Assembly: GCA_964016885.1 (NCBI GenBank)
Contig: OZ024743.1
Location: forward strand, 201,438,001-201,502,000
Length of the DNA: 64,000 nt
DNA from: Eledone cirrhosa
Taxonomy: Eukaryota
Reading direction: 5' to 3'
Shown here one piece after another: positions 2,757 through 64,000 of this stretch. A program made the position numbers and the translations under genes. The notes below the pieces were generated by a model that saw nothing but the letters and a program-made list of their open reading frames with translations, ran no database searches and was not told the DNA's origin. Numbering within the stretch: the first letter of the stretch is position 1; every line of letters begins with the position of its first letter.

Positions 2757-3690
2757 ATCATCATCATCATCATCATCATCAACGTTTAACGTCCGTGTTC
2801 CACGCTTGCATGGGTTTGGACGGGGGTATTCCCACTTGAGGCAAGAGTGATTGTCTTGCTCGCATAGGACTGTCTGGCAGGTTTTCTACAGTTGGATGCC
2901 CTTCCTAACACCAACCACATTTACAGTGTGGGACTGGGAGGTTTTTACCGTGTTGCCTACACAGCCACATTACAGCATGGACTGTGTGTTTTTTTGTCGT
3001 GACACCTACACGATCTCATTTGTTTCGGCCTGGATGGTGTGGCACCAACATAACTTTACATAGGAGGGGGTGGTGTGGATGGGGGTGTGGGTGGTGGGAC
3101 GGGGGTGTATTTTGTTAGAGATGCCTACTGGCTGTAGTAGGTTTTACTATGTATTTAGGTAAGGCGGGTCTTCTCTATTACTGAGTACCGCCAAAGATCT
3201 CGGTCCAGTGACATTGTCTTGGAGAGGTATAAGGTCGGAGTTTATCAGCTCGTCCCAGGATTTTCTAGGTCTGCCTATTCCGTGGCTACCGTCTATCTTT
3301 ATTGCCCTGCACTTTGTTATACAGCTATCGACTTTCATGCGCATCACGTGTTCATACCAACGTAGCCTTCTCTCGAGTAAACAACATCTGATCCCTCTTA
3401 TTTCTAATTTTTTCCTTAGTTCGTTTATGCTTTGCCGTTCACGTATATTACTATTACACATCCAGCGGAGCATGCAAGCTTCGTTCCTCTCTAGTCTGCG
3501 TATATCCTCTGCGCACAATGCCCATGTCTCACTGCCATGCAACATTGCTGTTCGTATGCAGGCATCATACAACCTGCCTTTCATTTTTAGGGTGAACCCT
3601 TTAGCGGCTAATAGTAGTATAAGCTCTCTGAACTTTTTACATCCAGTTCTGACTCTAGCTACTGTACTTTCGGAGCACCCTCCCCAATTA
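2757..3690 (-). mobile_element. 5'-truncated RTE LINE, family A: ORF2 C-terminus, 3' UTR, (ATG)n tail
   Basis: ORF 3147-3695 has GRLYDACIRTAMLHGSETW, RRLRWYEHVMRM and GRPRKSW; near-identical to 49655-50600 apart from a small frameshifting deletion. Confidence 0.9.
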
Positions 3691-4974
3691 AACATCCCTT
3701 GGAATATGTGGGCTTTCTTTCTTACTAATCTTCATAGATACTCTGCACATATTGCCCAGTTCTTACTTCCATGCAGCATTGATGTTTGTACTCAAGCTTC
3801 ATACAATCTTGGAGCTCATTTAAGTTCATTCGGCCGACACCATAATGCCCTAGTAATCCCTGCCTGGAGTGATGGTCTGTACCTACTTGAACATTGAAGT
3901 CCCCATAAGAATGAGTTCACTTCTATGTTGAATATCAGAGATGACATTGCGAAGTTGGTCATAGATGTTGTCTTTTCCTGCTCAGATCTGGCCATATTTG
4001 GGGTAAAGCATTTTAGGTTACATGAAAGTGCCATGATAAAGTGCACCTATTTTGCTGTGTCAAGTGGTAATGTTGGTTCCATGAGAAAATGAACACAGTA
4101 AATGCCATAAAGTGGTTGGCTTTAAGATGGGCATCCAGCAATAGAATTCATGCCAAAATGGAATATATGAGCAAGATACAGTCCTTTGACCTGTTTACTC
4201 TCATAACATGACAACCCATTTAAACATGAAAAATTGTTATAAAATGGTGATATGATGAGGATTATCAAAGACAAGCTCAATTATTTAGTAAGAATCTTAG
4301 TAAAACAGTAACCAGTGTGTAAGTGTTTGAAATATTTCAATAGATACTAGTTTTCCCTTTATTGAATCAAGGTCCATAAAACAAACACAAATGTTGTCTA
4401 TGTTGGGGAAAGAGAGATATGTTTGTTATAACAGAGTTTAAGACTTTTCCTTTTGATCTACAGATTTCTCAGAAAAACTGGCAAACAAATTGTCCAAATA
4501 AATATAAGACAAGCTCTGAGATTACAAAGAATCTCTCATGTGTGTTGTGATGGATTGTCATGGCTCAATCTGAGACACTAAGAGATGAGTATTTCTCTCA
4601 AGAAGTTAATGTTGTTTAACCTCATGTCAGCCTAGATCCAGTAGACCTATGATGAAAGGCATTTCACCTGAGACTATTACATTTTCTTAATACACACTGT
4701 ATTAACTCTTTCGGGGTCATATTTCTAATGGAATACACTCTGTTTCAATTAATTAAGGAAGAACTTGGTGTGATTTACTAAAATTATTAATTATCTCATT
4801 ACTAAGCTAGAAGCTTAAACATATGCTTCTTATATATATATCTATGCATGTGTGTGTGTGTATTAAGTGATTAATTTCTTCATTATCAGTAGTTTCATAA
4901 ATTCATTCAGTTGTATTCTGAATAAGTACTCATACATCTCTCTCTATCTCCCTCTCTCTCTCACTCTTACTCTC

Positions 4975-10277: not shown

Positions 10278-10487
10278 GACGAAAGTGGATGTACGTTTTT
10301 TGAAGCTCCGTGAGTAAGCAATTTTTTGAGGATTAATTGTAGAGAATTGTTTATTTTTTGTACCGCTGAAGCATTATAAGACATTAATTTGTATCCTGTG
10401 AAGGAATAACTCATAATATTTGGGCCTTTTGGCCCAAATATTTGAACTTTATTTTGGAAAAATCATAATTTTTTTCTCAAAAAAAAC

Positions 10488-12397
10488 ATGGCGGAGCCAC
10501 GCCCCCTAGAGGCGGGTCTGCTGTCGTGCAACGGCGACTTGAGCGTTGAGAGGAGAGGTGAGGCGAGGAGCGCCACCAGCACGTGTATGAGCAGCGACAG
10601 TGCCAGCACCAACGGGCCGAGCGGCGCGGAAGGTGGTAACAGTGACAACACCAACACCAACAAGCCGAACAGCGCAGAAGGTGGTAATAGCGAGAGCACC
10701 AACAAAACGAACAGCACAGAGAGTAATAGTAGCGACAGCAACAGCACCAACAAGGCCAACAGCACAGAGGGTAACCACGACACAGGGGAGAACAACAACA
10801 GCAATAGCAGCAGCAACACCAACAAGAACAACAACAGTGACAACACCAACAAGAACACCTTCGCTGCTGTGGCAGCGGCTAAAAGGAGACCATGCTACAG
10901 CATCGACTTAACCAACAGAGAGGAAAAGTTGGCCCAGGCCTGGAAAATCATAAATCAAGAGCAGACCTGGGCAAACTTAACTGTCCCGGCAGAAGCCATT
11001 GAGGCAGTGGAAAAAAGAACGGTGCATTTCAGATGCATCTCAGTAGAGACAAAGAGGGCAGCGATAATCGCCCAAGCTGACATAGAAGCCGCACTGAAAT
11101 ACATCAGAGAGGACACAGACTTCATAGAGAGGGGCAGGCAATACGGTACCGTTTCGGTGCTGTTCAAGTCTGAAGCCCTCGCTGTGAAGCATTCAATGAC
11201 CCCTTGCAAAACCAGCAAGGTCATAATGTACCCCTCCCACATGGGAAAACGAATAGCACGTGTGCGCATTCCCAGGATTCCACCAGGACTTGATATGTGG
11301 TGGCTCCTGGGTTGCGTAATCGTGGAAGGAACGGATACAGTCCCGGTAGAGGCAACGAGAACTGCCAGGGACGACTGGTCCGGGGTTGATCTGGAGATAC
11401 TGCTCCAAATCAGACCCGAAAACGTAAAAGCAATCCCGGACCACATCCGCCTCCAAAACGGGAGGGTGTTGCATATAATGACTGAGGGCAAAAGGCCGCA
11501 TTGTTTCCTTTGTGGGGAAACGACACACTTGCGAGCCTTCTGCCCTCAACTGCCGAAAAGCGCAAGGAGTCGAAAGATTCCACTGCTGGCGACGCCGGGA
11601 CAAGGACCACCAGCAACACCGTCAACAATGGAACCACCAAAATTGCACACCCAGGGGGGAAACGAGGAAAGCTCTCCCATTCCCCCTCCTCCCCAAAATA
11701 CACACACGAACAAGAACATAAACACTCACTCAGACACAAACACGCTCACAGCCACAGACCCCTCATCCTCCAGCAGTGAAGATGAGGGAAAACCAAAATC
11801 CCCCAAAATACAAAAAACAAAACACAAAAAAAAAAGAAATCCACAAAGCACAAACACCCCCACAAAAAAAAATACACACACCACCCACACAAACATTTTC
11901 CCCACAGCATCACCAACACAACCACCAAATCCCCCAAACGCAAACAAGCTAAACAGACACAAGAACAAATAGACACACAAACATCAGAAACTACAGACAC
12001 CCCACCCACAACAAACGCAGACACAATAGAAACAACACTAACAAAGCTATCACCACCACAATCACACGAACAAATAAAACCCGAGCAACAAAACATTAAA
12101 AACTTCGTGCTTGCCAGAAGGGCCAACAAGGAATTGATGGCCCATGTAGCACGAAGCACAAACATCGAAAAAGACGGGGAAACATTTGAAGCGAGCACAT
12201 TTCGCGTACCAGATAATTTGCTTCTGATGCGAATGTCGCTCGCTTCATACAAAGAAATTCGAAAGAGCTTTCCTCGGGATGTGGGAACCCCGAACGTAAA
12301 ACCCACGTCAAGACTATTAAAGGGGTTCCCAAAAGAAACCCCACAAACCATGGAGGTCGAACCACCCGACCTTCACAAGACCCCGGAAGGTAAGTAA
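10488..12397 (+). pseudogene. LINE ORF1 (gag-like, CCHC knuckle), frameshifted around 11820-11960
   Basis: CFLCGETTHLRAFC = CX2CX4HX4C; S/N-rich N-terminus; a second frame is open from before 11882 to the stop at 12397, 29 nt before the ORF2 ATG. Confidence 0.75.
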
Positions 12398-12426
12398 ACC
12401 TTTCCTCTCCCATTCATCCTGCCAGC

Positions 12427-13816
12427 ATGGCCATAAGAGTAGGAAGTTTAAATGTTCGTGGCTTGGGGTCGCCCTGGAAGCAAGGTCACTTGCTCAACGA
12501 CCTCAGGTCACTAGGAATGGATGTAATTGCCATCAGCGAGACCAGAATTTCCGACACACGCGCACTGGCGCCGATTTTCGACGATTATCAGATCTTTGCA
12601 TCTGTTAGTCGGCCGGGAATGGGAGGTGGAGTGGCTGTGCTGTTTAGGAAATGTCTGGATCTCGAGGTAAGGTCAATCTTCCGGGATCCTGACGGAAAGT
12701 TGGTGGTCCTGGACGTGAGCAATAGCGAAGGTGGTGCCTTTAGACTGGTGGCCGTCTACGCCCCTACTGGGGCCGGTCGGCCGGACTTCTTTAGGCGCCT
12801 GGAAAACTTTCTGCTTACGTCTCGCCCTTTACTGTTAATAGGGGATTGGAATGGCATCTTAGAAGCACGCTGGGATTGTGTGGGAGTATCTGATAGGAGC
12901 GGGGGGTGCAAAAGCCTCAAGTACCTGATCAGCCAGTTTCAACTGTCTGACAGGTACCGACTAGATTTCCCTAATGCGCCAGTATGGACCTGGACCAATC
13001 GCATAGGGTCATCTAGATCGTACATAGATAGGATTTTCATTAGGAAAAGAGATAGAAATAGTGTAGGATGTCCACATTTTAAAACGGTTGCCTATTCAGA
13101 TCACAAGCTTGTGATCTGTATGGTCGACCTAGATAAGACACGTAGGTTAGGACCCAGCTACTGGAAGCTAAACATGTCGTTTCCGGCACGTAAAGCTTAC
13201 AGGGACCGGGTCAACAACTTAGTTAAGCAAAAGTTGACAGGGGGGGTTGTCAACAACAGGTGGTGGGGGGCACTCAAAAGAGAGATTAGAGCAACCTCGA
13301 TAGGATTTAGCAAAGAAGTAGCAATAGAGAAAAATAGAAAGGAGGAGGGGCTGATAGCTAAGTTAGACGAGGCTATTTGTAGTGGCATTGCAACAGACGT
13401 GCTAGCGGCGAGAATGGCACTAGACCATTTCTTCAATGCGAAACACGAAGGTTGCATTGTCAGAGCTAAGGCGCGTGCTCTGAGGAACGAGGGAACCAAA
13501 GCTGCCCGATGGGCTCGCTTTGCAGAGACGCAGCGTGGAAATAAAACCACAATTCGGTCTTTGACGGATCGAGATGGACACGAACTGAGCGATTCCAAGC
13601 AGATGTGTGAGGCCTTTCGCCAGCACTTTGCTCGATTGTTCGGGAGGATGGGTGAGTCGGAGACGGCGGCGGACTTCAGTCCCTACCTCGACGGCTTGCC
13701 ACGCCTCTCGACGGCCGACGCTGAGCGCTGCGAAGAGCCGATAACATCAGTCGAAATTCAGGACGCCCTTGTCGGCTGCTCGAGTCGCAAGTCACCCGGT
13801 TTGGATGGTCTGCCGT
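12427..13816 (+). pseudogene. LINE ORF2 N-terminal part: APE endonuclease and linker
   Basis: SLNVRGL, ISET, VYAP, GDWN, YIDRIF, YSDHK and KSPGLDGLP motifs. Confidence 0.9.
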
Positions 13817-15745
13817 GGCGTAGTGACGCTGATAAGGAAAGACGAGAACAAGAGGGACACACTAGATAATTTCAGGCCCATAACCCTGCTCAACACAGAG
13901 TTTAAGATTTTGGCCAAGGTGTTAGCGAAAAGGTTGGCGCTTGTCGTCAAAGATTTGGTTGGGGAGGCGCAAACTTGCGCAATCCCGACCAGGTCCATAC
14001 ACGACAACCTCCACCTCATGCGATACATCATAGAGATGGTTGGGTGCAAACCTGGCTTCGGTGGGGCTCTGATCAATTTAGATCAATCGAAAGCATTCGA
14101 TAGGGTCGACCATCGGTACTTGGAGGCTGTCCTCGAGGCGGCTGGCTTCGGCCCCGTCTTCAGAAGCTGGATCGCTGCAATGTACAGCGGCATCTGCTCG
14201 GTGGTCAAAGTTAATGGCCACCTCTCGGAACCGTTTCAGATCTCTCGATCGGTCCGTCAAGGGTGCCCTCTCTCCTCACTTCTGTACGTATTGACTCTTG
14301 AGCCTCTACTGCGGAAGCTGGAGTTGTTGCAGGGCATCCCGCTCGAACCGGGACGCAGAAAGGCTGCGTCCGCTTATGCGGACGACATCACCGTGATGGT
14401 GTCGGACACCTCGGAAATCGAGGTGATCCGCACCCATTTGGAGGAATATGAAAGGTTGACGGGAGCAAAACTTAACCCGGAAAAGTCGGTGGGCTTGCAG
14501 CTCGGCACCTGGAGAGGCAAGTCCATGCCGTCCAACAGCGTCGTTGGGCGCTGGACAGACGGACCGGTAAAGTTGCTCGGGGTTTGGTTCGGACCAGACC
14601 TCCAGGTGGATAAGAATTGGGACGAGGTGACGAGCAGGATAGCCAACCTCACCCAGAAATGGGCTGAGAGAAAGCTATCACTGAAAGGGCGGGCGGAGGT
14701 GGCGAACGCGTACATCGCGTCCGTCATCTACTACCGCCTGACCGTCGTGCCTTGCCCCCGTCCACGCCTCGCCAATTTGGAACGGCTCCTTTTCAAATTT
14801 TTGTGGAGGGGACGGGTCCCGTTGGTGAGGCGGTCCATCTGCTGCCAGCACCCTCTTCGTGGAGGGCTGGGCATGCCGTGGCTAATGATGCGCAGACATG
14901 CGCTGAGGCTGCGACATCTCCAGATATTTTGCCTAAACGGTGAACAGGTGTGGTCGCCGTTTGTTAGACGGGCCTTTCCGCAGCTCATCTCTTTGACTGA
15001 GCTGCAGTCCTGGGTCAAGAAGAGACCGAGACTGGGCGACGGGCATCTGGAATGTTGCCAGGCGCTCACTGCACTCTGCAAGGTGGGCAATGCGGTCAGT
15101 GGAACTTCCACTCAAGATTTCTATAGAGGATTAGTGGAGGGCAAGTGCGATGACGTACTAGGAGAGGTTCTGGGCGTCAAAGAAGTAGAACTGACCAGTA
15201 TGTTCCGGAGGACTTTCGAGCCGGGGACGATGGATAACTTCCAGAAATCCCTCGCTTGGCAGTGCTACCGGGGGGCGCTGCCGGTTCGGGATAAACTCTA
15301 CAGGCACGGAAGTGCTGTCAGGCGAACCTGCCCGAGATGCGCGCAGAGCGACGAAACCGTTCTGCACGCACTCGTCCAGTGTCCGTGCATTGCTGACTTG
15401 TGGGGTTATGTCGAACAGCTATTGTCGCGTGTAGAACGGATCCGGCTATCGTCCGAGTCCATAGTGAAGATTGACCCGCCGCCTTCTTTTGGTCAGGAAG
15501 GGCAGGCAATTTTCCTCTGCCTGGTGGCAGTAGCGAAAGAGGTTGCATGGTGGACCAGGTTGAAAGCACTGAAGACAGACACTTTTCTCTTCGGCCAATC
15601 CCTCATCAACTTCTTCAAGTTTCACTTGGAAAGGAAGGTGAGGGTGGAGAGAGAAGTGCTGCCCCCCAGTACATTTACTGAAAGGTGGGTGAATGTGGCA
15701 AGAATGGCCCGCGTGAGTGGGCCTACTCTGATCATGCGCCTGTAG
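13816..15745 (+). pseudogene. LINE ORF2 C-terminal part: reverse transcriptase and CCHC finger
   Basis: NFRPITLLN, LDQSKAFDRV, VRQGCPLS, YADD and CPRCAQSDETVLHALVQC; out of frame with the N-terminal part because of an internal deletion. Confidence 0.92.
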
Positions 15746-26100: not shown

Positions 26101-28714
26101 AGATAGTAACTTAATGTAATGTTCTTATATAAAATTATTTTGGAAGATTTTTTAGTGAATTGGCCATAGGGTTATTTACTCCAGTAAATACCACTACATG
26201 CCAACCACTAATTTAATTTGTTTAGAAGATGTAAAAGAAATGACGATGTAGTAACTGAAACATGAATGAATACTTCGGAAAAGTGTATCAGTAACGATTT
26301 GCATTTATTGAAGTAGCTTGTTACAATTTTGGTAGTGAAACGTACCTCGTGCCATGATGTGGTGTAATCCTGAGGTATAGGATAGGATTAGAAAAGTTTA
26401 GCATCTGTGCTTGGTGTGGTCAGTTCTAGAGCCGTTGGTGAAAGAGAGATAGATTGTCCTTTGCTCCTTCTTTTATAATCTCTGAAACGGAAGTTCAAGG
26501 AGCATTCTAGAAATTCTACGGGAAGTAACTTTGGCTACTTCCTTTTGTCTAGAGAGCGCTACAATTTTAATTTAAATTGGAAACCTCTAAAATGGGTGAT
26601 TTTATTTCATAGAACCAGAGCCAGTTTTGGCCGGGTTGGTAACTAAAGAGTTAAATATATGATTAAACATATAATAATTCCCTATGATCAATAAATATAT
26701 TCCTAAACATCAGTGTTATGTTACAGGGCTGTGGAAATAACCAAAGCAGTGGAGGTAGTCATAGGGGATTATAGGTCAATGTGTGAGTGTGGGCTCCGTA
26801 GTAGAAAATGTAGGCTTAGTAATTTTATTAGTATGGTCAGAGAACGAAACTGTAAGCAGTCTTAAAGCTGATGAGTGTATTTGAATGTTTGTGGTCTCCT
26901 CTCATCCATTTTATTCCTCTCTCCTTTCTTCCTGTCAATTCTTTGACCCAACTCACTTCTAGACACTGATTTCTGTCCTTTGAGGTAATATTTTACCCAA
27001 CGCTGCTTCGATGGCATTTTGCCGTTTTAACAGCTTCCTTACACCAAGTTTTCCCATTTTCCTACAATTCTAATACACTCACATCTCAAACTTGATGTTC
27101 GAGTTCATTTTGTTTATAAAAGCAAGATTGGTCAGCTAACCAAATTGTAAGTTGAAATTACTTTATTTCGGGAAAATGGCTACACTCTGTTGAGCTAACC
27201 TAAAGCAATAAATACCCAGGTACTGGCTCTGAGTAGCATGTTATTAGAGTGCATATCTCAATTAATTGTTTCTACTTTTGGCACAAGGCCAGCAATTATG
27301 CAGTGTATTACTGGTACTTTATTTTATCGACCCCGTAAGGATGAAAGGCAGAGTCAACCTTGACGGGATTTGAACTCAATGAGATAACATTTGTAAGCAT
27401 GGTTGTGATGTGGATTAGGATGCTTGAGTATGTTGGTAATATCACCACCACATCATTGTCTATTCCTGCCTGATGATGACAGATGAAAGTGATGATGATG
27501 ATAGTTGGTGTTGATGGTGGTGGTTGTGGGTGAGAAAATGACAATTATGAAAGCAACAAAGTCAATAATGATGATAGAGATGGTGATGATTTCAAGGATA
27601 GTGGTGTTATTGTTTATCATCATCATCATCATCATCGCCATCATAATTTTATAAGGATAAATGATGTTGTTGATCCTCTACATCATCATCATCACTATCA
27701 CTATTGCCATCATCATCATCATCATCATCACTGTTCTATCCAGAGGACAGATTATAGCGAGTTATTTGATGTTATTGACACAATGTGTGCAAGACAAAGC
27801 ACCTGCTTTTCTGCCAGAAGATATTTTACATTGTAACAAGAGTAAAAGAAAGAAAAGAATTTTCAAATATGAAATACTTAATGAAAGATCATTATGTAGT
27901 ATGCTTGCATTTATATATATTTATATATATTTATTTAGTTATTAAAATAACAGATTAAAGTTCAAGCAAGGAATCGCTGCTTTCATCCTTAACGAGATCT
28001 TCTGAAAAAGAAACAAACACATACACACACATATATATAAACTAAATATATAAAACTAGTTACAGATCATTTAGCAATGCAAACCACCTCAATTTTGCTT
28101 GAGATTAAGGACACTGCTTTTTCTTCTCTACTTTGGATTTTGTGAGCTGGATTAGCTTGGATGCTGGCTCAAGGACAATGCAGCAGTCTTCAGGCTTTTT
28201 GTTTTTCATCTAGATATATTGCCAACCAAGGCCAAAAAGCAACTATCTACTCTTGAGATGAGCTATCAAGTGCCAGACAGCAACGTGGTATTTTAACTCC
28301 ACAGATATGCACTGTTTAATTGGCCGTTGTCTCACATGAGCTCCTCTTCTCATTGACAGGTTTTGTTTGTTATCACACATGATGTCCAAAAAAAACAAAA
28401 ACATTCTCTTCATCAAGCTGGTTTAGTTGCAGATGACCTATCCATGTAACATGTTGTACTGGGTAACATATGACTAGTAGTACTTAAAAGTAACCTGGCA
28501 TATAAAAAGGGGGTCAAAATGGGGATTGCAAATTAGCCCCCCCCCCCCCCCCCCCCCAAATATGTGCCATAATGACATCGGATATCAGTAAAGAGCTAAA
28601 AGTAGACAAACAAAACGTTCCTAAAGTCACAGAGTTCAAGTTCATAGGAAGTCTCGGGCCAGATTGTGAATCAAATGTCCTAGAGCCAATACCCATGACA
28701 TCACATGTGTTTGG

Positions 28715-35865: not shown

Positions 35866-36681
35866 TAAAGAATTAATATCTAGTAACATATATATACATA
35901 CAGATGCATATCAATGCTAGCAAATATATAGGTTTTGTCTTAGTAACTTTGTGGTTCAATGCATGGGGTTGCAGAACAATAATATGAGAGACGTAAAATA
36001 AGAAAATTATAAAATTAACTTACTTACTAAAATATCACTTCCAACTAATTAGTTTCTGGAATGGAATAAATATATTTTCCGAAGAAAACAGAAAGAATCA
36101 TTCCGTCGTCAGGGAAGACTATTCTCATCTAAGTATCCAGGCAAAGCGTGGACTCTGGAAACTTATTAAAAAATAATTCAGTGGATAGAAAATAGCAAAG
36201 CGTGGACTGAATTCCTAGCCATTGAGAAAATCACTGCCTCTGCGTCGGTGGCAAATTCAAAAAGAATCAATCACGTGACATCGAGGTCAATCAGTGGAAA
36301 GTGGTTTGCTAATAAGACAGCGGCCTGCCTGCTACCATAGCAGCAGTCATGGCCAATATTGCTTGACAAATAATTTGGAGATAATTATAAAGAATTAATA
36401 TCTAGTAACATATATATACATACAGATGCATATCAATGCTAGCAAATATATAGGTTTTGTCTTAGTAACTTTGTGGTTCAATGCATGGGGTTGCAGAACA
36501 ATAATATGAGAGACGTAAAATAAAAAAAATTATAAAATTAACTTACTTACTAAAATATCACTTCCAACTAATGATTCTCTATGTTTTCTTCGGAAAATAT
36601 ATTTATTCCATTCCAGAAACTAATTAGTTGGAAGTGATATGTAAGTAAGTTAATTTTATAATTTTCTTATTTTACGTCTCA
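35866..36681 (-). mobile_element. Non-coding PLE/retrozyme-like element: 520 bp unit, partial tandem copy and inverted end
   Basis: 35866-36050 is repeated at 36386-36570; 36571-36681 is the reverse complement of ~35990-36101; HHR-like core on the minus strand at ~36063-36116. Confidence 0.7.
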
Positions 36682-37039
36682 CATATATATATATATATAT
36701 ATATATAAACAAAAGTAACTGGTTGAAAGATCAAAACTGGTAGAGTTATGCTAAGAATTTTTAAGCTCAATGTGTTTCTACAATCTGCAAATAGAACAAA
36801 ATTTCATCCACAGTGCAATCCCTGGTCAAATAAATCCAGGATATTACATTAGTGCAGCAACACAGAGCATTTAAATAGTAAGTCCCAGAGTTTAGAAGGA
36901 ATTTAAGACAATTTTATTCATCTTACATGCATTTCTATAGCTGCTCTATGTATGTGTGGCCAGCAAACCTGAAACACTTCACCCCATCGGCTGTACCATA
37001 GACCCCTTACCACATGCCACTCTTGCTTCTTTTTCTCCA

Positions 37040-37900
37040 TGTATGTGGATGATATACTCATGCTCATTTATTGTCTGATGAAGCTGTCAAATTATAGATA
37101 ATTTCAACAATATTGTTGACTACATAAACTTCAAATTTGAACACTCAGATATCATTGGGTTCTTCTCTCAGCTCGACTTAACACAAAGAATCACAGAGAA
37201 GGGTTCCATATACACCAAATTTTATAAAACGGAAACCTGGAGGAACATATTTGTGTACCGTAATTTTGCCCCACCCAGCAGAGCCAGAATTGCTTACGTA
37301 CAAAATTAGATCTCCTGGATACACCCCAGATGCAGTGAGACTAGTGACAAAAACTCCCACACAAAAGATTTCCAAAAAGTTCTCATTGAAAATGACTACT
37401 TAGCTTCTCTTACTAAACACCAGGATATAAACACACTGCCAAGGAGAGCATGCACCTCTAGTGATAGCATATGTTATCTAAAAGTGTTGCTTTTCAATGA
37501 AAGAACTACTGCTGATATATATCAAGCTATCCCTAGGAAAAATCTAAACATGTCACTAGCACACTCAAGACCTTCTCCGCAGATAATTTTCTCAAAAACC
37601 TGACCAACATACACCAACAATAGATGCAGACTTCCTAACTGTCCCATCGACAATTTGGAATTGTGCATAAGATCATATGTGGTTTCCAAGGTCACCTGCA
37701 AAGCATGTGGTAGCTTATACATTGGAAACACTGGAAGCTACACATAGGCATTAAAGAACACAGGGCGACAAGTGCTTCCTCTATCAAAAATAATTACTTA
37801 GAGATATGCCACACCTGAGATATTGAGGTTACCATAGAAGGCACCTAGATGAATGTGGGTAATTTTCAGTTAAAAGAGGCTAATCCTATCAACATACATA
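37040..37900 (+). pseudogene. Highly degenerate Penelope RT to GIY-YIG region
   Basis: YVDDIL at ~37041; CRLPNCPIDNLELCIRSYVVSKVTCKACGSLYIGNTG..IKEHR; many stops and frameshifts. Confidence 0.65.
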
Positions 37901-37908
37901 CAACCAAA

Positions 37909-38115
37909 ATTGTTTCTACTATAAGCAGAAGGCCAGCAATTTTGGGTGAGGGGAAAGTCAATTACATCAACCCCAGTGCATTATTTTATTGGCCCAATAA
38001 GGATAAAAGGCAAAGCTAACATCGGCAGGATTTGAACTCAGATAGTAAAGGGGCATAACCCTATGCCATAAAGCATGGTGTCTGAAGCTCTACCGATACT
38101 GCCAATCCACCGCCC
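37909..38115 (-). mobile_element. SINE family A
   Basis: Family core and ends. Confidence 0.75.
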
Positions 38116-39847: not shown

Positions 39848-40091
39848 CATACACGTACATACACATATACATGTATGTGTGTGTAAAACTCAGTCTTAGA
39901 TAATTCATATGGACCTTACATATATATAGTAGTAAGGTAATAAAGTAATAAGCAACATAAAGCAATTATTCTATTCACCAGTGGTTTCTTAAAGGCAAAA
40001 AATGTTTCCTTCAATCTTCAGAATGAAAAAGCCTGGTCTATCTACATATACATACATATACACACACAAATATATATATATATATATACAC

Positions 40092-41548: not shown

Positions 41549-41757
41549 TATATATATATATATATATTTCGTATCTGAATTTGTTTAGCAAGATTCTTTA
41601 TCTGAAATCGTGTGTTGAAACCGATATTGTTATACTTTGGGAGGGTCATGTTTCCAATAAGAAACACATGCACCAGTTGCTTTCACTTCAATTTATTATA
41701 TATTTATAAATTTCTGGTTGGTTGGTTGGTTCCACAACCAGATAGTTGTTTATATAT

Positions 41758-41802
41758 AGTCATAGTTCTTTCGTCACACACTCTGTGACCTCTTCAGTGA
41801 CT
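41758..41802 (-). ncRNA. Minimal type I hammerhead ribozyme
   Basis: Reverse complement of 42720-42764. Confidence 0.7.
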
Positions 41803-42002
41803 GGGGATTCCTTTCTTTGTTTCTGTGCCTCTCCTTTGTTCTGTCCTACGCCATTTTGTTTCTGTGTGTGTGTTGTGTGCTCAGTCTGCGCATGTGCCAC
41901 ATCCGGGTGTCTGTGTGTGTTTATGTTCATTTATCTATTTGTTTATTTACATGTTACTGGTTGGTTGTTTGTTCTATGTGTGTGTGTGTTTTCATTTTGT
42001 CC

Positions 42003-42272
42003 TTAATTGTAAGTTGTGATGTTGCTGTTCCACTCATATTTTCTATTTAATTTTGGTTGTAATTCTTTTATGATTATTGCCTCTGTAATTTGTCTAAACA
42101 TTGCGTCTTTTCTGTGTGTAGATTCTATTTTTATTTCTATGTTCTCTAATTTACCCTTGTGTTCTATCTTAGCATGTTGGTAGAGTACAGATGATTCTTT
42201 ATTATCTTGAAGGTCTCGCCAGTGTTCATTTATCCGTTCCCCTACACTACGAGCTGTCTCACCTATGTACAC
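42003..42272 (-). pseudogene. Penelope GIY-YIG endonuclease C-terminal fragment (mirror copy at 42265-42519, plus strand)
   Basis: YIGETARSVGERINEH..H....H..RQITEAIII..LN. Confidence 0.88.
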
Positions 42273-42719
42273 TAGTGTAGGGGAACGGATAAATGAACAC
42301 TGGCGAGACCTTCAAGATAATAAAGAATCATCTGTACTCTACCAACGTGCTAAGATAGAACACAAGGGTAAATTAGAGAACATAGAAATAAAAATAGAAT
42401 CTACACACAGAAAAGACGCAATGTTTAGACAAATTACAGAGGCAATAAACATAAAAGAATTACAACCAAAATTAAATAGAAAATATGAGTGGAACAGCAA
42501 CATCACAACTTACAATTAAGGACAAAATGAAAACACACACACACATAGAACAAACAACCAACCAGTAACATGTAAATAAGCAAATAGATAAATGAACATA
42601 AACACACACAGACACCCGGATGTGGCGCATGCGCAGACTGAGCACACAACACACACACAGAAACAAAATGGCGTAGGACAGAACAAAGGAGAGGCACAGA
42701 AACAAAGAAAGGAATCCCC

Positions 42720-42764
42720 AGTCACTGAAGAGGTCACAGAGTGTGTGACGAAAGAACTATGACT
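42720..42764 (+). ncRNA. Minimal type I hammerhead ribozyme
   Basis: AGUCA-CUGAAGA-G-GUCACA GAGUG UGUGAC-GAAA-GAAC-UA-UGACU. Confidence 0.7.
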
Positions 42765-42906
42765 ATATATAAACAACTATCTGGTTGTGGAACCAACCAA
42801 CCAACCAGAAATTTATAAATTTGTAAATTTATAAATATATAATAAATTGAAGTGAAAGCAACTGGTGCATGTGTTTCTTATTGGCAACATGACCCTCCCA
42901 AAGTAT

Positions 42907-42950
<44 letters not shown>

Positions 42951-42952
<2 letters not shown>

Positions 42953-43245
42953 TATAAAGTATGTCCATAGAATCATTTGATAATATATAAACACCGTTTC
43001 TTCTTCCAATTAGCATAATTAACCACAAATAATCAATTAAACGAGGCTATAAGATTAAAAGGCATCTATGAAGAAATAGTAGATAAATAAACGACAGCAA
43101 TCTATTCACGACCAACCGCTAAAGAATATCTACCCAACATTTCAATAGCACGTGGAAATCGATTAAATATACCGTCAACCATACATAATTAGGTATAAAA
43201 TTAAAGTTAGAAGAAAAAATGCATATACACATACCAGGATTACGT
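42951..43245 (-). mobile_element. Copy of the post-ribozyme segment of the 62383-63440 family
   Basis: Co-linear with 63142-63437; between (TA)n tracts. Confidence 0.8.
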
Positions 43246-49654: not shown

Positions 49655-50768
49655 TCATCATCATCATCATCATCAACGTTTAACGTCCGTGTTCCACGCT
49701 TGCATGGGTTTGGACGGGGGTAGTCCTACTTGAGGCAAGAGTGATTGTCTTGCTCGCATAGGACTGTCTGGCAGGTTTTCTACAGTTGGATGCCCTTCCT
49801 AACACCAACCACATTTACAGTGTGGGTCTGGGAGGTTTTTACCGTGTTGCCTACACGGCCACATTACAGCGTGGACTGTGTGTTTTTTTGTCGTGACACC
49901 TACACGATCTCATTTGTTTCGGCCTCGATGGCGCGGCACCAACATAACTTTACATAGAACGGGGTGGTGTGGATGGGGTGGGGGTGGTGGTGGTGGGGCG
50001 GGGTGTATTTTGTTAGAGATGCCTACTGGCTGGAGTAGAATTTACTATATATTTAGGTAAGGCGGGTCTTCTCTGTTACTGAGTACCGCCAAAGGTCTCG
50101 GTCCAGTGACATTGTCTTGGAGAGGTGTAAGTGTGTGATGTCGGAGTTTATCAGCTCGTCCCAGGTTTTTCTAGGTCTGCCTATTCCGTGACTACCGTCT
50201 ATCTTTATTGCCCTGCACTTTGTTATACAGCTATCGACTTTCATGCGCATCACGTGTCCATACCAACGTAGCCTTCTCTTGAGTAAACAACATCTGATCC
50301 CTCTTATCTCTAATTTTTTCCTTAGTTCGTTTATGCTTTGCCGTTCACGTATATTACTGTTACACATCCAGCGGAGCATGCAAGCTTCGTTCCTCTCTAG
50401 TTTGCGTATATCCTCTGCACACAATGCCCAGGTCTCACTGCCATGCAGCATTGCTGTTCGTATGCAGGCATCGTACAACCTGCCTTTCATTTTTAGGGAG
50501 AACCCTTTAGCAGCTAATAGTGGTATAAGCTCTCTGAACTTTTTCCAACCAGTTCTGACTCTAGCTACAGTACTTTCAGAGCACCCTCCCCCACTGCTGA
50601 TTTTATCGCACAGGTAACGGAAGCTGTCCACTATTTCTATAGAACCCTCTGCGCAATTGAAAGAGCTAGTATTTTGTGGGCACTTGCTGCTACTTATTGC
50701 ACCAGAACACCGGCCACATGTAAAATCTATGTTCTTAGTTAGCTTACCTGTGATCCCACTACATCCCA
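49655..50768 (-). mobile_element. 5'-truncated RTE LINE, family A
   Basis: ORF 50053-50769 is an intact RTE C-terminus; 3' UTR and (ATG)n tail. Confidence 0.92.
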
Positions 50769-50814
50769 CTACATCTATATATATATTAATTCAAAATATT
50801 AATAAATATAGACA

Positions 50815-52252
50815 TTTATGTATAGGGGAGCAGTCAGCAAAGTTAGGATTAGCAATGAGTATAGCGAGGAATTTAGCGTACAGGTTGGGGTCCACCAGGG
50901 CTCTGTTCTTAGCCCTCTCCTGTTCATCATAGTCCTGCAGGCAATAACGGAGGAATTTAAGACCGGATGCCCATGGGAACTCCTGTATGCTGATGACCTC
51001 GCACTCATAGCTGAATCTATGATAGAACTAGAGAATAAATTCCAAACCTGGAAGCAGGGACTAGAGAGAAAGGGTCTCAAAGTCAACATGACAAAGACTA
51101 AGGTCCTTGTAAGTAGACGAGAAAACAGAACCCAGATCCCCTCAGGGAAATGGCCTTGCTCAGTATGTAGGAAAGGTGTAGGTAGGAACTCGATTCTCTG
51201 CCCCAAATGCAAACAATGGGTACACAAGAGATGTAGTGGGATCTCAGGAAGCTTAAATAAGAATGTAGGATTCACATGCAGCAGCTGTGCTGAAACAGCA
51301 AGCAGCAAACAGCCACAGGAAACAAGCACCACCAATCTATGGGAGGGCCCTGTAGAAACAGTAGACAGCTTCTGCTACCTAGGTGACCGAATTAGCAACG
51401 GAGGTGGATGTTCAGAAAGTACAATAACTAGGGTAAGAACAGGATGGAAGAAGTTTAGGGAACTACTACCACTGCTAGCTGCAAAAGGCTTCTCCCTCAG
51501 AATGAAAGGCAGACTGTATGATGCGTGTATCCGAACAGCGATGTTGCATGGTAGTGAGACCTGGGCGCTGAAGGTGGAAGACTTACGTAGATTAGAGAGA
51601 AACGAAGCCTGCATGCTCCGATGGATGTGTAACAGTAATATACGTGAACGACAAAGCATAAATGAATTGAGAGAAAGACTGAGCATAAGAGGAATCAAAT
51701 GCTGTGTGCAGGAGAGGCGGTTGCGCTGGTATGGACATGTGATGCGTATGAAGGATGACAGCTGCATAAAAAGGTGCAGAGCACTAGAAGTTGATGGAAA
51801 CCGCGGAGTGGGGAGACCCAAGATGACCTGGGATGAGGTGATAAAAGCCGACCTTACCCAATTACACCTCTCAAAGACAATGACACACGACCGTGACTTC
51901 TGGCGTCATGCAGTAATACAGAGTACCCGACCTCCCATGGGTACATGCTGAAGCATATAAACAATATGCCCCCACACCCCCCACCGCAAGGTGGTCGTGG
52001 AGATGCCACGGCAAAAAAGCACCCAGCCCACACTGTAAAGTGGACGTGTAGGCGCCACGAAAAAGCACCCAGCACTCACTGTAAATGAGGTTGGTGTTAG
52101 GAAGGGCATCCAGCTGTAGAAATCAAGCCAGATCAGTTCCTGTATGAGCAAGGCATGGTCAGCCGACCAGACACTGCACACAACAGGACAACCCGTCTAA
52201 CCCATGCTAGCGTGGAAGAACGGACGTAAAATGATGATGATGATGATGATGA
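50815..52252 (+). mobile_element. 5'-truncated RTE LINE, family B (RT, PHD finger, C-terminus)
   Basis: ORF 50818-51951 has GVHQGSVLSP, YADD, a C4HC3 finger and GRPKMTW; 3' UTR and (ATG)n tail. Confidence 0.93.
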
Positions 52253-52266
52253 TTCACGTAATCAAA

Positions 52267-52338
52267 ATATATTTTATTATATATATTTCGGAGGTACTGT
52301 GTTGTTTTCTCAATACGTCCTCATCAGATAAAATATAT
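52267..52338 (-). ncRNA. Type I hammerhead ribozyme, family HH4
   Basis: AUAUAUUUUAU-CUGAUGA-GGACGUAUUG..CAGUACCUCC-GAAA-UAUAUA-UA-AUAAAAUAUAU. Confidence 0.75.
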
Positions 52339-55472: not shown

Positions 55473-55539
55473 GTGGACGTAAAATGAAATGATGATGATG
55501 ATGATATATATATATATGTATATATATATATATGCATGT

Positions 55540-56473
55540 ATATGTATACTACGGTGACAGTAATATCTGCGTACGCACCTCAATCCAGACTGCCCGGCAC
55601 TATAAAAGACAGATTCTATGAGATACTGATGCTCACTACCTCCCAAATAACCGACAGTGACTATATAATTATTGCAGGTGACCTAAATGGTCACGTTGGA
55701 CAACATTGTGACGGCTATGACGAAATCCATGGAGGCTATGGGTTTGGTACTAGAAATGAGGAAGGCTCCAGAATCCTGGAATTCTGTGACGCAAATAACC
55801 TAACTATCTGTAACACTAACTTCAAAAAACGTGACAATCACCTGATCACCTATAGATCCGGGGAACACACAAGCCAGGTAGATTATATCCTTACCAGAAG
55901 ACGTGACAGAGTGTCTGTTGTAAACACTAAATCCCTCCCCCTTGAAGAATGCACCTCCCAACATAGACTGATAATTAGCGACCTAATAGTCAGGACGAGA
56001 CGTGCTAGACAAAAGAAGAGGACTATCCTCAGGAGAAAAATATGGAAGCTAAAAAAAGCAGGCTTGGAAAGTATGGCGGGATGGGGGAAGTAGAGAAGAC
56101 TATTGGCGGTACTCAGCCATAGAGAAGACCCGCCTTACCTAAATACATAGTAAAACCTACTACAATCAGTAGGCATCTCTAACAAAATACACCCCCATCC
56201 CACCCCTTCCACACCGCCCCCTTCTATGTAAAGTTATGTTGGTGCCACACCATCCAGGCCGAAACAAATGAGATCGTGTAGGTGTCACGACAAAAAAACA
56301 CACAGTCCACGCTGTAATGTGGCCGTGTAGGCAAGACGGTAAAAACCTCCCAGACCCACACTGTAAATGAGGTTGGTGTTAGGAAGGGCATCCAGCTGTA
56401 GAAATCAAGCCAGAATCAGTTCCCGTCCCACCCTTGCAAGCAGGGAAAAGCGGACGTAAAATGATGATGATGA
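55540..56473 (+). mobile_element. Internally deleted chimeric RTE: APE fragment joined to the C-terminus and 3' UTR
   Basis: SAYAPQ, GDLNGHVG, GFGTRNEEG, QVDYIL, SQHRLI; then WRYSAIEKTRLT*; family A UTR switching to the SINE-B/RTE-C tail. Confidence 0.85.
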
Positions 56474-56482
56474 TATATATAT

Positions 56483-56646
56483 ATTGAAAGGATAACAAGG
56501 ACAATTGGTTACTCCTTCATTACATTTATTGGTAGGTGACGCACGTTTCGCCACTGATCAGCTCAAGCTTTGATCACAGATGTGAACCTAAACATCGAGT
56601 GCTCACCCAGGTGAACCTGCAGTAACTCCAAGTTACACTCCCTAGA
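56483..56646 (-). mobile_element. Probable short PLE end with the 3' half of an HHR
   Basis: Minus strand GAAAC-GUGC-GUC at 56538-56549; no intact CUGANGA or stem I; (TA)n flanks. Confidence 0.35.
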
Positions 56647-56652
56647 TATATA

Positions 56653-56784
<132 letters not shown>

Positions 56785-56786
56785 TA

Positions 56787-57587
56787 TGGCCATGTTCGAT
56801 ATGCAGAAAAGGAACTGGCATAAATTAAGAGATGTAGCGGGATAGCAGACAAACTAACAGGTAGGGAGAAATATGTATGCAGTAGATGTACAGGGAAATT
56901 AGACAGTAGAAGTCGCATTGATAGACACATTTTTCAAATGCAGGAGGGCGCTATAGATGTGGTGGATAGCTTCCGGTACCTAGGAGATCAGATTAGCATG
57001 GGAGGAGGGTGTTCCGAAGCCATAGTTTCTAGAATAAGGACGGGTTGGAAGAAGTTTAGGGAGCTGCTTCCTCTGTTGACGAAGAAGGGTTTCTCCCTGT
57101 GTACGAAAGGCCGGTTGTATGATACCTGTATGAGGAGCGCGATGCTGCATGGTAGTGAGACATGGGCAGCAACTGCAGAGGATATGCGACGGCTGGAGAG
57201 AAATGAGGCAAGCATGCTCCGTTGGATGTGCAGTGTAAATGTGCGTGAACGACCCAGCATAAATGTGTTGAGAGAGAAATTGTGTCTGAGAGGGATAGAA
57301 TGTAGTGTACGGGAGAGGAGACTGAGGTGGTATGGACATGTGATGCGCATGGAGGATGACCGATGGGTGAAGAAGTGCCAGGAAATGCCAGTTGAAGGAA
57401 GACGTGGTAGAGGTAGACCACGAAAAACATGGGCGGAAGTGGTGAGAACAGAACTCAGTTCATTGAAGCTCATGGTGGAGATGACGAAGGACCGTGACGA
57501 GTGGAGAGATGCTGTGCTGAATAAGACTCGTCCCACCCTTGCAAGCAGGGAAAAGCGGACGTAAAATGATGATGATGATGATGATGA
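56787..57587 (+). mobile_element. 5'-truncated RTE LINE, family C
   Basis: Partial PHD finger, then ORF 56938-57564 ending KTRPTLASREKRT* directly before (ATG)n. Confidence 0.92.
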
Positions 57588-62004: not shown

Positions 62005-62005
62005 C

Positions 62006-62261
<256 letters not shown>

Positions 62262-62382
62262 TATATATATATATATATATATTTATTAAAATAACAGATT
62301 AAAGTTTAAGCAAAGAATCGCTGCTTTCACCCTTAACGGGATCTTCTGAAACTAACAAAGTCAATCTGTAAACGCAGAATAT

Positions 62383-63440
62383 ATATAAAGATTTACATAT
62401 ACACAAACTAGATAAAGTGATAGATATGTTTTTGGCAACCATTCACGATGTGGCTTAATGATGAATTAATAAATTAAATAATCAGAGCAATATACTATAA
62501 ATTATGTCCTTAGAATCATTTGATAAAATATATACTCAATTTCCTCTCCCAATTAGTATAATCAACCACACAAAAAAACAATTAAACCAGGCTATAAGAT
62601 TAAAAGGCACCTGTGAAAAAATAATAGATAAATAAACGATAGCCATCTATTCGCGGTCAACAGCCATAGAATATTTACCAAGCATTTCAATAGCACATGG
62701 AAATCGATTAAATATATCGTCAACCATACACAATTAGGTATAAAATTAAAGTTAGAAGAAAAAATGCATATACTCTGATTATTTAATTTATCATTGAGGC
62801 ACATCGTGAATGGTTGCCAAAAACATATCTATGACTTTATCTAGTTTGTGTATATGTAAATCTTTATATTTGATAATCTCTCATAAGGTTGAGATGCAAT
62901 TTAGGCAATATTAGGCTGCGCTTTCTAGCAACCAGCCTACTAGCCATAAGGCACCAATCACATTCTTTCTAACTTGACCACTGCCATGTCACAGTTCTTA
63001 GCCATTTTGAATTTGTTTCTGGCGGGGATCATTTAAGAAAAATCTTTGTCCAAGTGAGTTTGTTTCCTGATGAGTTGGAAGCTCGAGAATTTATCCTTGA
63101 TAGGATATTTCCGAAAGTGAATGAAACCCTAAAGGGTAGAAACGTAATCCTAGTATGTGTATATGCATTTTTTCTTCTAACTTTAATTTTATACCTAATT
63201 GTGTATGGTTGACGATATATTTAATCGATTTCCATGTGCTATTGAAATGCTGGGTAAATATTCTATGGCTGTTGACCGCGAATAGATGGCTAATATTTAT
63301 TTATCTATTATTTCTTCAAAGGTGCTTTTAATCTTATAGCCTGGTTTAATTGTTTTTTTTGTGGTTGATTATACTAATTAGGAGAGGAAATTGAATATAT
63401 ATTTTATCAAATGATTCTAAGGACATAATTTATAGTATAT
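62383..63440 (+). mobile_element. Non-coding HHR element, family HH5: ~670 nt unit (62773-63440) preceded by an inverted permuted copy (62383-62772)
   Basis: 62383-62487 is the reverse complement of 62773-62869; 62491-62772 is the reverse complement of 63160-63439. Confidence 0.8.
63062..63143 (+). ncRNA. Type I hammerhead ribozyme with a long stem II
   Basis: GUUUC-CUGAUGA-[49 nt including the UAUCCU UGAU AGGAUA hairpin]-GAAA-CCC UAAA GGG-UA-GAAAC; GUA triplet, predicted cut between 63138 and 63139. Confidence 0.8.
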
Positions 63441-64000
63441 ATATATATATCATAATTATCATCCCCATCACCACATCCACCACCACCACCATCCTCATCA
63501 TCATTATCATCACCGTTTAATGTCCATTTTTCTATGCTAGTATGGGTTAGACGAGTTGTCCCATTGTGAGACAAGTCAGATCAGGTGTGTATATGTGTTG
63601 GCAAAGCTACAATTAGTTAAATTTGGTGAGTGTTATTGGTTGTGGTAGTTGTGATGGTGGTAGTAGTAGTAATATTAGTGTTGTTGCTGATGGTGGTAGT
63701 GGTACTGTTTGTGGTGTTGGTGATCATAGTGATGGTGATGGTTGTGATGGTGGTAGTAGTGGTGGTAGTGGTAGTGGTGGTGGCTGTGATTAGAAATAAT
63801 TTTATTCATGGAGGTGGTGTTGTTTGGCATTATAACCATACATGGTTACAGAACAGCTGAGTGACAAACTAAGATAACTCCTCCTCATGAACATTATCAA
63901 AATAATCACTTTCACCACCAGCACAAAATCATCACCCGCACCATCATCAGCACCACCACCAACACCACTATCATGATGATGATCATCATAATTAACACAA

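Follow-up and report, generated by a model that had tools for sequence, protein, structure and literature searches.

Penelope-like elements (PLEs) characteristically insert with an inverted, 5′-truncated arm and a tail at one end (PMC8557442, PMC3846280). PMC8557442 gives a tail of 30–40 bp at one end and describes both microsatellite targeting and non-autonomous Chlamys elements, and the same inverted-arm layout is documented for the rotifer element Pen2a_Av (PMC3846280). Two internal starts of reverse transcription on a linear tandem RNA have been put forward to account for the tail, and for one PLE, that of the anole, ribozyme cleavage proved dispensable in vitro: insertion did not need it, and no reads ended at the cut (PMC11167929). 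Tandem retrozymes have been shown to form circles of 170–400 nt (Cervera and de la Pena 2020, PMC7229834). Animal retrozymes have since been argued to be non-autonomous PLEs (Li, Clavereau and Pollet 2026, 10.64898/2026.07.22.740005), with a consensus length of 51–972 bp, solo monomer copies and a relationship to pseudo-LTRs (pLTRs); an ‘active’ retrozyme is defined there by two or more successive units that each bear a hammerhead. Circle-templated insertion has so far been a proposal (PMC4209133, PMC7229834). The locus described here bears on the role of the hammerhead ribozyme (HHR) in PLEs and on circles as templates for PLEs and retrozymes.

The insertion occupies positions 62383–63440 of the window, the 64-kb stretch of DNA analysed here, and consists of two arms arranged head-to-head. 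Self-comparison of the window sequence placed the plus arm at 62773–63440 (668 nt), with the order X-Z-Y: X (62773–62869) is followed by the non-coding body Z (62870–63060), by a predicted type I HHR (63061–63144), and by Y (63139–63440), a pLTR-like 3′ segment ending in gtatat at a (TA)n. In the minus arm, which extends from 62773 back to 62383, the order is Y (Y′, 284 nt, 62490–62773), then TG at the Y-to-X unit junction (62488–62489) and then X (X′, 105 nt, 62383–62487), Y′ being an inverted 5′-truncated arm and X′ a tail at its outer end that terminates in tttatat. Y of the plus arm (63159–63440) and of the minus arm (62773–62490) are 96.5% identical over 284 columns with 2 gaps, while X of the plus arm differs from that of the minus arm (62487–62383) by 3 substitutions in 97 nt and an 8-nt indel. 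The initial annotation had described the plus arm as X-Z-Y and the minus arm as Y running across TG into X, and the arm alignment confirms this. It likewise bears out the proposed length of the plus arm, namely one full permuted unit minus 2 nt (668 of 670 nt): X begins 2 nt past the unit junction, the first base of the arm being the next one after the minus-arm TG, and the last base is the end of Y. Counting the longer minus-arm X, the unit measures 678 nt. The GC content of the ~670-nt unit is 32%, and at the inversion point the arms overlap by 1 nt (62773).

The left target context is a (TA)n microsatellite (62156–62282, from an AT array at 62153–62286) and the right one is (TA)5 (63441–63450), where a target duplication is not readable. 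Directly outside the minus arm lies a feature missed in the initial annotation, a 97-nt end fragment of another repeat family (62283–62379, minus strand; 94–99% identity to 2233–2329, 1545–1632 and 27939–28007), which is possibly a separate insertion or a template switch. This second family also ends in (TA)n, and at 1525–2362 two of its copies lie inverted to each other, with a duplication of 135 nt inside. The repeats flanking the insertion at 62005–62154 and 63491–63570 appear to be LINE 3′ ends that terminate in (GAT)n(TA)n. Within the unit, a 16-nt direct repeat (94%; 62841–62856 and 63150–63165) connects the start of Y with the end of X. A hexamer, GTATAT, occurs at the 5′ start of the minus arm (63159) and again at the end of Y (63435). 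A tandem array of the ~670-nt unit was not seen within the 64-kb window; the locus itself holds one ribozyme and no two consecutive HHR-bearing units.

An internal comparison is provided by a palindromic insertion at 41568–42914, the 5′-truncated 3′ end of a coding PLE with a GIY-YIG C-terminus in each arm. It is flanked by (TA)n and carries a 56-nt tail on the inverted (left) arm only. Its palindrome of 645 bp at 41624–42914 is spacer-less, with 6 mismatches in 629 positions, and minimal hammerheads lie at 41797 (−) and 42725 (+). A stub of the same family at 750–977 has the same tail, and more end pieces are found near 35.0–35.5 kb. The best relative of this element carries GIY-YIG and a Cys linker, and by this linker we read the element as Neptune type (clade after PMC8557442). 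A weak endonuclease-profile match near 37.6 kb (36000–38000; 11.9 bits, E 0.002) is possibly an old PLE remnant. Nucleotide similarity between the coding PLE and the unit is limited to chance matches of 11–18 nt. Given the matching layout of the coding PLE, it is routine in this window for an inverted arm to continue beyond the end of its element, and in those terms Y corresponds to the pLTR and TG-X to a tail of 107 nt. The PLE-style integration proposed in the initial annotation is thus supported, an inverted 5′-truncated arm with a one-end tail being present as at 41568–42914. However, the layout is not supported as a footprint specific to a circular template, as it is standard in the PLE descriptions of PMC8557442 and PMC3846280 and is present in the coding PLE of the window. 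Because inverted arm and tail make up the standard PLE insertion, the inference of a circle is weaker than the annotation had assumed.

To follow the family beyond this window, contigs or reads of four of nine public sequencing runs were aligned to 62745–63475 (X3, X5, X6, X8 and X9 were left out; run X4 is labelled with a second organism). Contigs fitting the unit numbered 3,255 in run X1, 3,391 in run X2 and 280 in run X4; depth was present in each bin of the unit, and the contigs jointly tile its full length. No loci matched a 25-nt pattern from Y in contigs of metagenomes, viruses and prokaryotes, so these sets yielded no long flanked copy. The joint from the end of Y to the start of X recurred in at least four contig rows (12 rows listed, 5 further), all from run X2, and one of them carries the identical TG; their depths of 7–25 are too low for the frequency of the joint in the family to be deduced. 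Of the suggestion that the template was a circle or a head-to-tail concatemer, the read-through from Y into X is therefore upheld, the recurrent joint indicating that the template did run from Y into X, while a specificity of the layout for a circle is not. Among the 40 listed of 300 difference rows, the minus arm has 6 of 13 minority letters in common with the plus arm, the third copy of the family in the window (see below) 0 of 12. The common letters fit an origin of both arms from one source lineage, or later gene conversion between them.

These data also bear on an origin of the layout by rearrangement of DNA after insertion, either an inversion or deletion in an older tandem or a palindrome that lost its direct Y, or by an assembly artefact, in which case the locus would be uninformative on the RNA template. 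No aligned record spans the inversion point 62773, and the minority letters common to the arms could mean local duplication. However, the ~3% divergence between the arms, together with the 8-nt indel, argues against a fold-back read; the minus arm holds the Y-X junction that is missing from the plus arm; and the 645-bp spacer-less palindrome of the coding PLE survives, such palindromes thus not always being lost here. We consider this origin very improbable. Further signals were set aside. Read-end pile-ups in run X7 at 62898, 63010, 63013, 63091, 63197 and 63351 fall on AATT sites and were read as restriction ends; the loose ends and the run-on share of 0.93 in this run were dropped, the run being read as a reduced-representation library; and a step in X1 depth just past the cut (9,000 to 148,000) was not used, similar dips occurring within Y where the copy diverged.

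Hammerhead ribozymes share the core motifs CUGANGA and GAAA and an NUH cleavage site. In the unit, CUGAUGA (63067–63073), GAAA (63123–63126) and the triplet GUA (63136–63138) form such a core, identified by a motif descriptor. Stem I consists of 5 Watson–Crick pairs plus U-G and stem III of 4 pairs, and the helix II region is 49 nt long. In the copy at 62383–63440, stem II comprises 2 Watson–Crick pairs, 2 G-U pairs and 1 mismatch, and the minimum-energy fold does not form the HHR core, which is mispaired. With the letters that predominate in the family at 63077 (99.8% of X1 depth), 63118 (98%) and 63122 (79%), the base of helix II has five Watson–Crick pairs, and the letter at 63077 also abolishes one pair in a competing helix. 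Against such a repair of helix II, T at 63074, found in 54% of X1 depth, breaks the first pair of the helix. The descriptor, whose thresholds were chosen with the motif already known, matched 1 of 20,000 shuffles. Scored against the features of a type I HHR, the unit has the core and three helices and lacks a curated Rfam match: the Rfam hammerhead models gave no match at the gathering score, nor at E up to 10, and they likewise missed the other PLE ribozymes of the window. We take the HHR to be a genuine motif, decayed in the present copy, with a cut predicted after A63138; one HHR per unit agrees with the initial annotation. With its helix III of 4 bp, the predicted ribozyme would probably be able to cut as a monomer.

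The predicted cut lies close to the starts of two Y arms. A third family copy, absent from the initial annotation, is located at 42947–43245 (−); it is Y-only, tail-less and 87% identical. Its 3′ end is the same base as the end of Y in the plus arm, and its 5′ end corresponds to 63142, which lies 3 nt downstream of the first base that follows the predicted cut. The 5′ end of the inverted arm Y′ corresponds to 63159, 20 nt after that base. Both this copy and the insertion at 62383–63440 have a (TA)n target.

In accordance with the initial annotation, the unit has no recognizable coding capacity. The longest stop-free stretch is 79 codons, and 0 of 13 stop-free stretches reached the Pfam cut-off. 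For the 79-codon frame no relative was found among 37 candidates, which is weak evidence. At 30 bits, none of 151 PLE-type endonuclease proteins matched the 62383–63440 locus, whereas 147 of the same 151 matched the coding PLE at 42270–42914. The endonuclease profile scored –3.2 on the unit and 96.6 on the coding PLE, and 162 of 200 shuffles scored at least as high as the unit. A supposed endonuclease-like motif in the 79-codon frame, which overlies the ribozyme, was rejected on the outcome of the Pfam, relative and endonuclease searches. The unit thus has no ORF with reverse transcriptase (RT) and GIY-YIG, the mark of an autonomous EN+ PLE.

The possibility has to be weighed that X-Z-Y is the repeated terminal unit (a tandem pLTR) belonging to some longer coding PLE, or arose from one by a single deletion, and that the locus is a short truncated insertion of that element, given that most PLE insertions are 5′-truncated in the account of PMC8557442. 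Alignments break repeatedly at 62900, with one X1 contig carrying 97 unaligned letters upstream; several contig joints skip 67–91 nt between 62822 and 62914; and the contigs are so short that a rare long form could hide. More generally, contig alignments often break or skip at 62830–62900, possibly a variable spacer or an old deletion point, and single contig records among those listed have 67–97 unaligned letters. Owing to these letters and the frequent breaks near 62900, a rare longer form may exist. However, the fraction of contigs that continue into unlike sequence was given as 0 in X1, X2 and X4, and the sequence preceding X in the joints seen is Y. Summed depth of X and Z, which is not copy number, is of the same order as that of much of Y. 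Clear endonuclease sequence lies ~210 nt upstream of the ribozyme in the coding PLE, and none is present in the 290 nt upstream of the unit HHR; the lack of relatives of the 79-codon frame points, if weakly, in the same direction. We therefore judge a longer coding parent improbable. An autonomous partner with Y or X was not found; the search returned one coding PLE family within the window.

We lean, with some reservation, towards the view that the locus is a copy of a non-coding ~670-nt multi-copy unit with a predicted HHR, a non-autonomous PLE or retrozyme-type unit that was copied by a PLE reverse transcriptase-endonuclease into (TA)n from a linear RNA of more than unit length. The arms, their junction, the family and the lack of coding remnants are direct observations; the course we propose is as follows. 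A tandem or partial-tandem source would be transcribed through the Y-X junction, and the ribozyme would cut some of the transcripts after A63138, creating 5′ ends at the start of Y. A PLE enzyme would cut AT-rich DNA and prime internally at two sites 107 nt apart, site A at the end of Y and site B at the end of X. Both sites finish in ATAT, which could pair with the cut (TA)n target. The copy begun at site B would have run via TG and Y to ~20 nt from the cut 5′ end, yielding the inverted arm and the tail. The copy begun at site A, where the third copy also ends, would have passed a ribozyme site left uncut and reached the start of X, because the RNA began there or because the enzyme stalled. 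The two copies would then have been joined head-to-head over the 1-nt overlap. Y arms starting 3 and 20 nt past the cut favour linear cleaved templates. The ribozyme-cutting step is weakened by the finding that cleavage is dispensable in the anole PLE (PMC11167929). Further points stand against parts of this scheme. Among them are the failure to find an autonomous partner with Y or X, the absence of a tandem array from the window and the T at 63074 in helix II. The plus arm stops 2 nt from the junction without a ready reason on a linear template (~0.7% under uniform truncation, a figure that applies to the given locus, which was chosen after the fact for this coincidence), and the 107-nt tail exceeds the usually reported 30–40 nt of PLEs. 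Twin priming of L1 type on one RNA was rejected as a poor fit, because the arms overlap by all of X.

The stop of the plus arm leads to the rival idea of a covalently closed RNA circle of ~670 nt, produced by ribozyme cleavage and ligation in the same family and used by the same enzyme. Here, reverse transcription would have begun at site A, continued over the sealed cut site and ended when, one lap later, the enzyme met its own start; with internal priming by the PLE enzyme, long arms would stop at one lap and short ones at the cut. The plus arm, as one unit minus 2 nt, indeed spans an intact cut site, and its near-exact one-unit length is, at this single locus, the sole pointer to a circle. 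The expected cutting as a monomer and the starts of the Y arms 3 and 20 nt past the cut would also be in keeping with it, as would at least three contigs, among the 24 listed of 6,971 records, that break at 63134–63154 with 25–67 unaligned letters, although these breaks could be explained by local divergence. As precedent, circles have been demonstrated for the retrozymes of coral, mussel and axolotl (PMC7229834) and proposed for PLEs (PMC4209133). On the other hand, this is one locus, picked owing to the one-lap coincidence, and the stop of the plus arm is also explained on a linear RNA by a natural RNA start or a stalled enzyme. In the proposals of PMC4209133 and PMC7229834 a circle would give tandem copies of more than unit length, and none were seen here. 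An inverted arm that stops near the cut is a better fit to linear cleaved RNA, the same layout is present in the coding PLE of the window, and folding as a closed molecule (–152.8 kcal/mol, 60% paired) brings no gain in stability over the open form (–158.2 kcal/mol). The suggestive details, the one-lap arm and the Y starts near the cut, come from three arms in all. We hold a circular template to be unlikely. If true, the genomic copies would attest to the use of circular as well as self-cleaved templates by the PLE machinery, and this would tie the circle cycle of retrozymes to the inversion and tail formation of PLEs. As the unit is short and multi-copy, with an HHR predicted to cut as a monomer, counts of copy starts can address both the role of the ribozyme and that of circles.

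The window contains further elements of related kinds. Two different minimal type I hammerhead motifs lie 187 nt apart on opposite strands at 52327 (−) and 52514 (+), with a palindromic TATATA helix III, dimer-type as in metazoan PLEs, and relaxed scans returned weak hammerhead-core-like motifs at 40021 (−), 38750 (−) and 45812 (+). A near-complete LINE of L1/Tx1 type with ORF1, endonuclease, RT and zf-RVT spans 10446–15745. LINE fragments with RT and a PHD finger, which we take to be RTE-like, are found at 50056–51948, 55488–57561 and 3150–3731; it is this LINE whose 3′ ends appear to flank the insertion at 62005–62154 and 63491–63570.

Until copy starts are counted, the insertion stands as an ordinary one of PLE type, from a family for which the literature searched, repeat libraries not included, gave no description; nor did that literature yield a description of inverted retrozyme insertions. 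What is new here are the thousands of contigs fitting the unit, the Y-X joint in run X2 and the repair of stem II by majority letters. Compared with metazoan non-LTR retrozymes, the unit is likewise non-coding, low in GC and multi-copy, with one type I HHR, a head-to-tail junction, PLE neighbours and a size within 51–972 bp (10.64898/2026.07.22.740005). Unlike them, it has no tandem of two ribozyme-bearing units at the locus; its helix II region is 49 nt and its helix III 4 bp long; it is longer than the circles of 170–400 nt reported in 2020 (PMC7229834); and it carries an inverted arm and a tail, which do not figure in the retrozyme descriptions consulted in PMC7229834 and 10.64898/2026.07.22.740005. 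The initial annotation had set a retrozyme-like template against PLE-style integration; the integration is indeed PLE-style, but the contrast vanishes if animal retrozymes are non-autonomous PLEs, as argued in 10.64898/2026.07.22.740005.

With EN+ PLE insertions, such as Pen2a_Av (PMC3846280), those of PMC8557442, PAc (PMC11167929) and the element at 41568–42914, the locus shares the head-to-head 5′-truncated arm and the one-end tail, as well as a ribozyme on the 5′ side of the pLTR, a (TA)n target and ATAT at both outer ends. In contrast to these insertions, the unit has no ORF, no direct upstream pLTR past the inversion point and no palindrome at that point; its tail is 107 nt instead of 30–40 nt, and in tandem coordinates its arm starts are offset by 284 nt versus ~21 nt in the coding element of the window. 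Chlamys MRC1 and Chlamys-N4 are also short non-coding PLE derivatives with a microsatellite target, and the non-autonomous PLEs of Chlamys likewise form pLTRs and head-to-tail copies (PMC8557442, PMC9977147). According to the same two sources, they differ in being green-algal, mostly without canonical hammerheads and targeted to (C)n or (CA)n, and a similarity to an autonomous partner has been shown for them, whereas none was found for the unit in the window. With its single ribozyme, the insertion behaves as a non-autonomous PLE would, and equally as a monomer of a retrozyme, a class to which it may belong.
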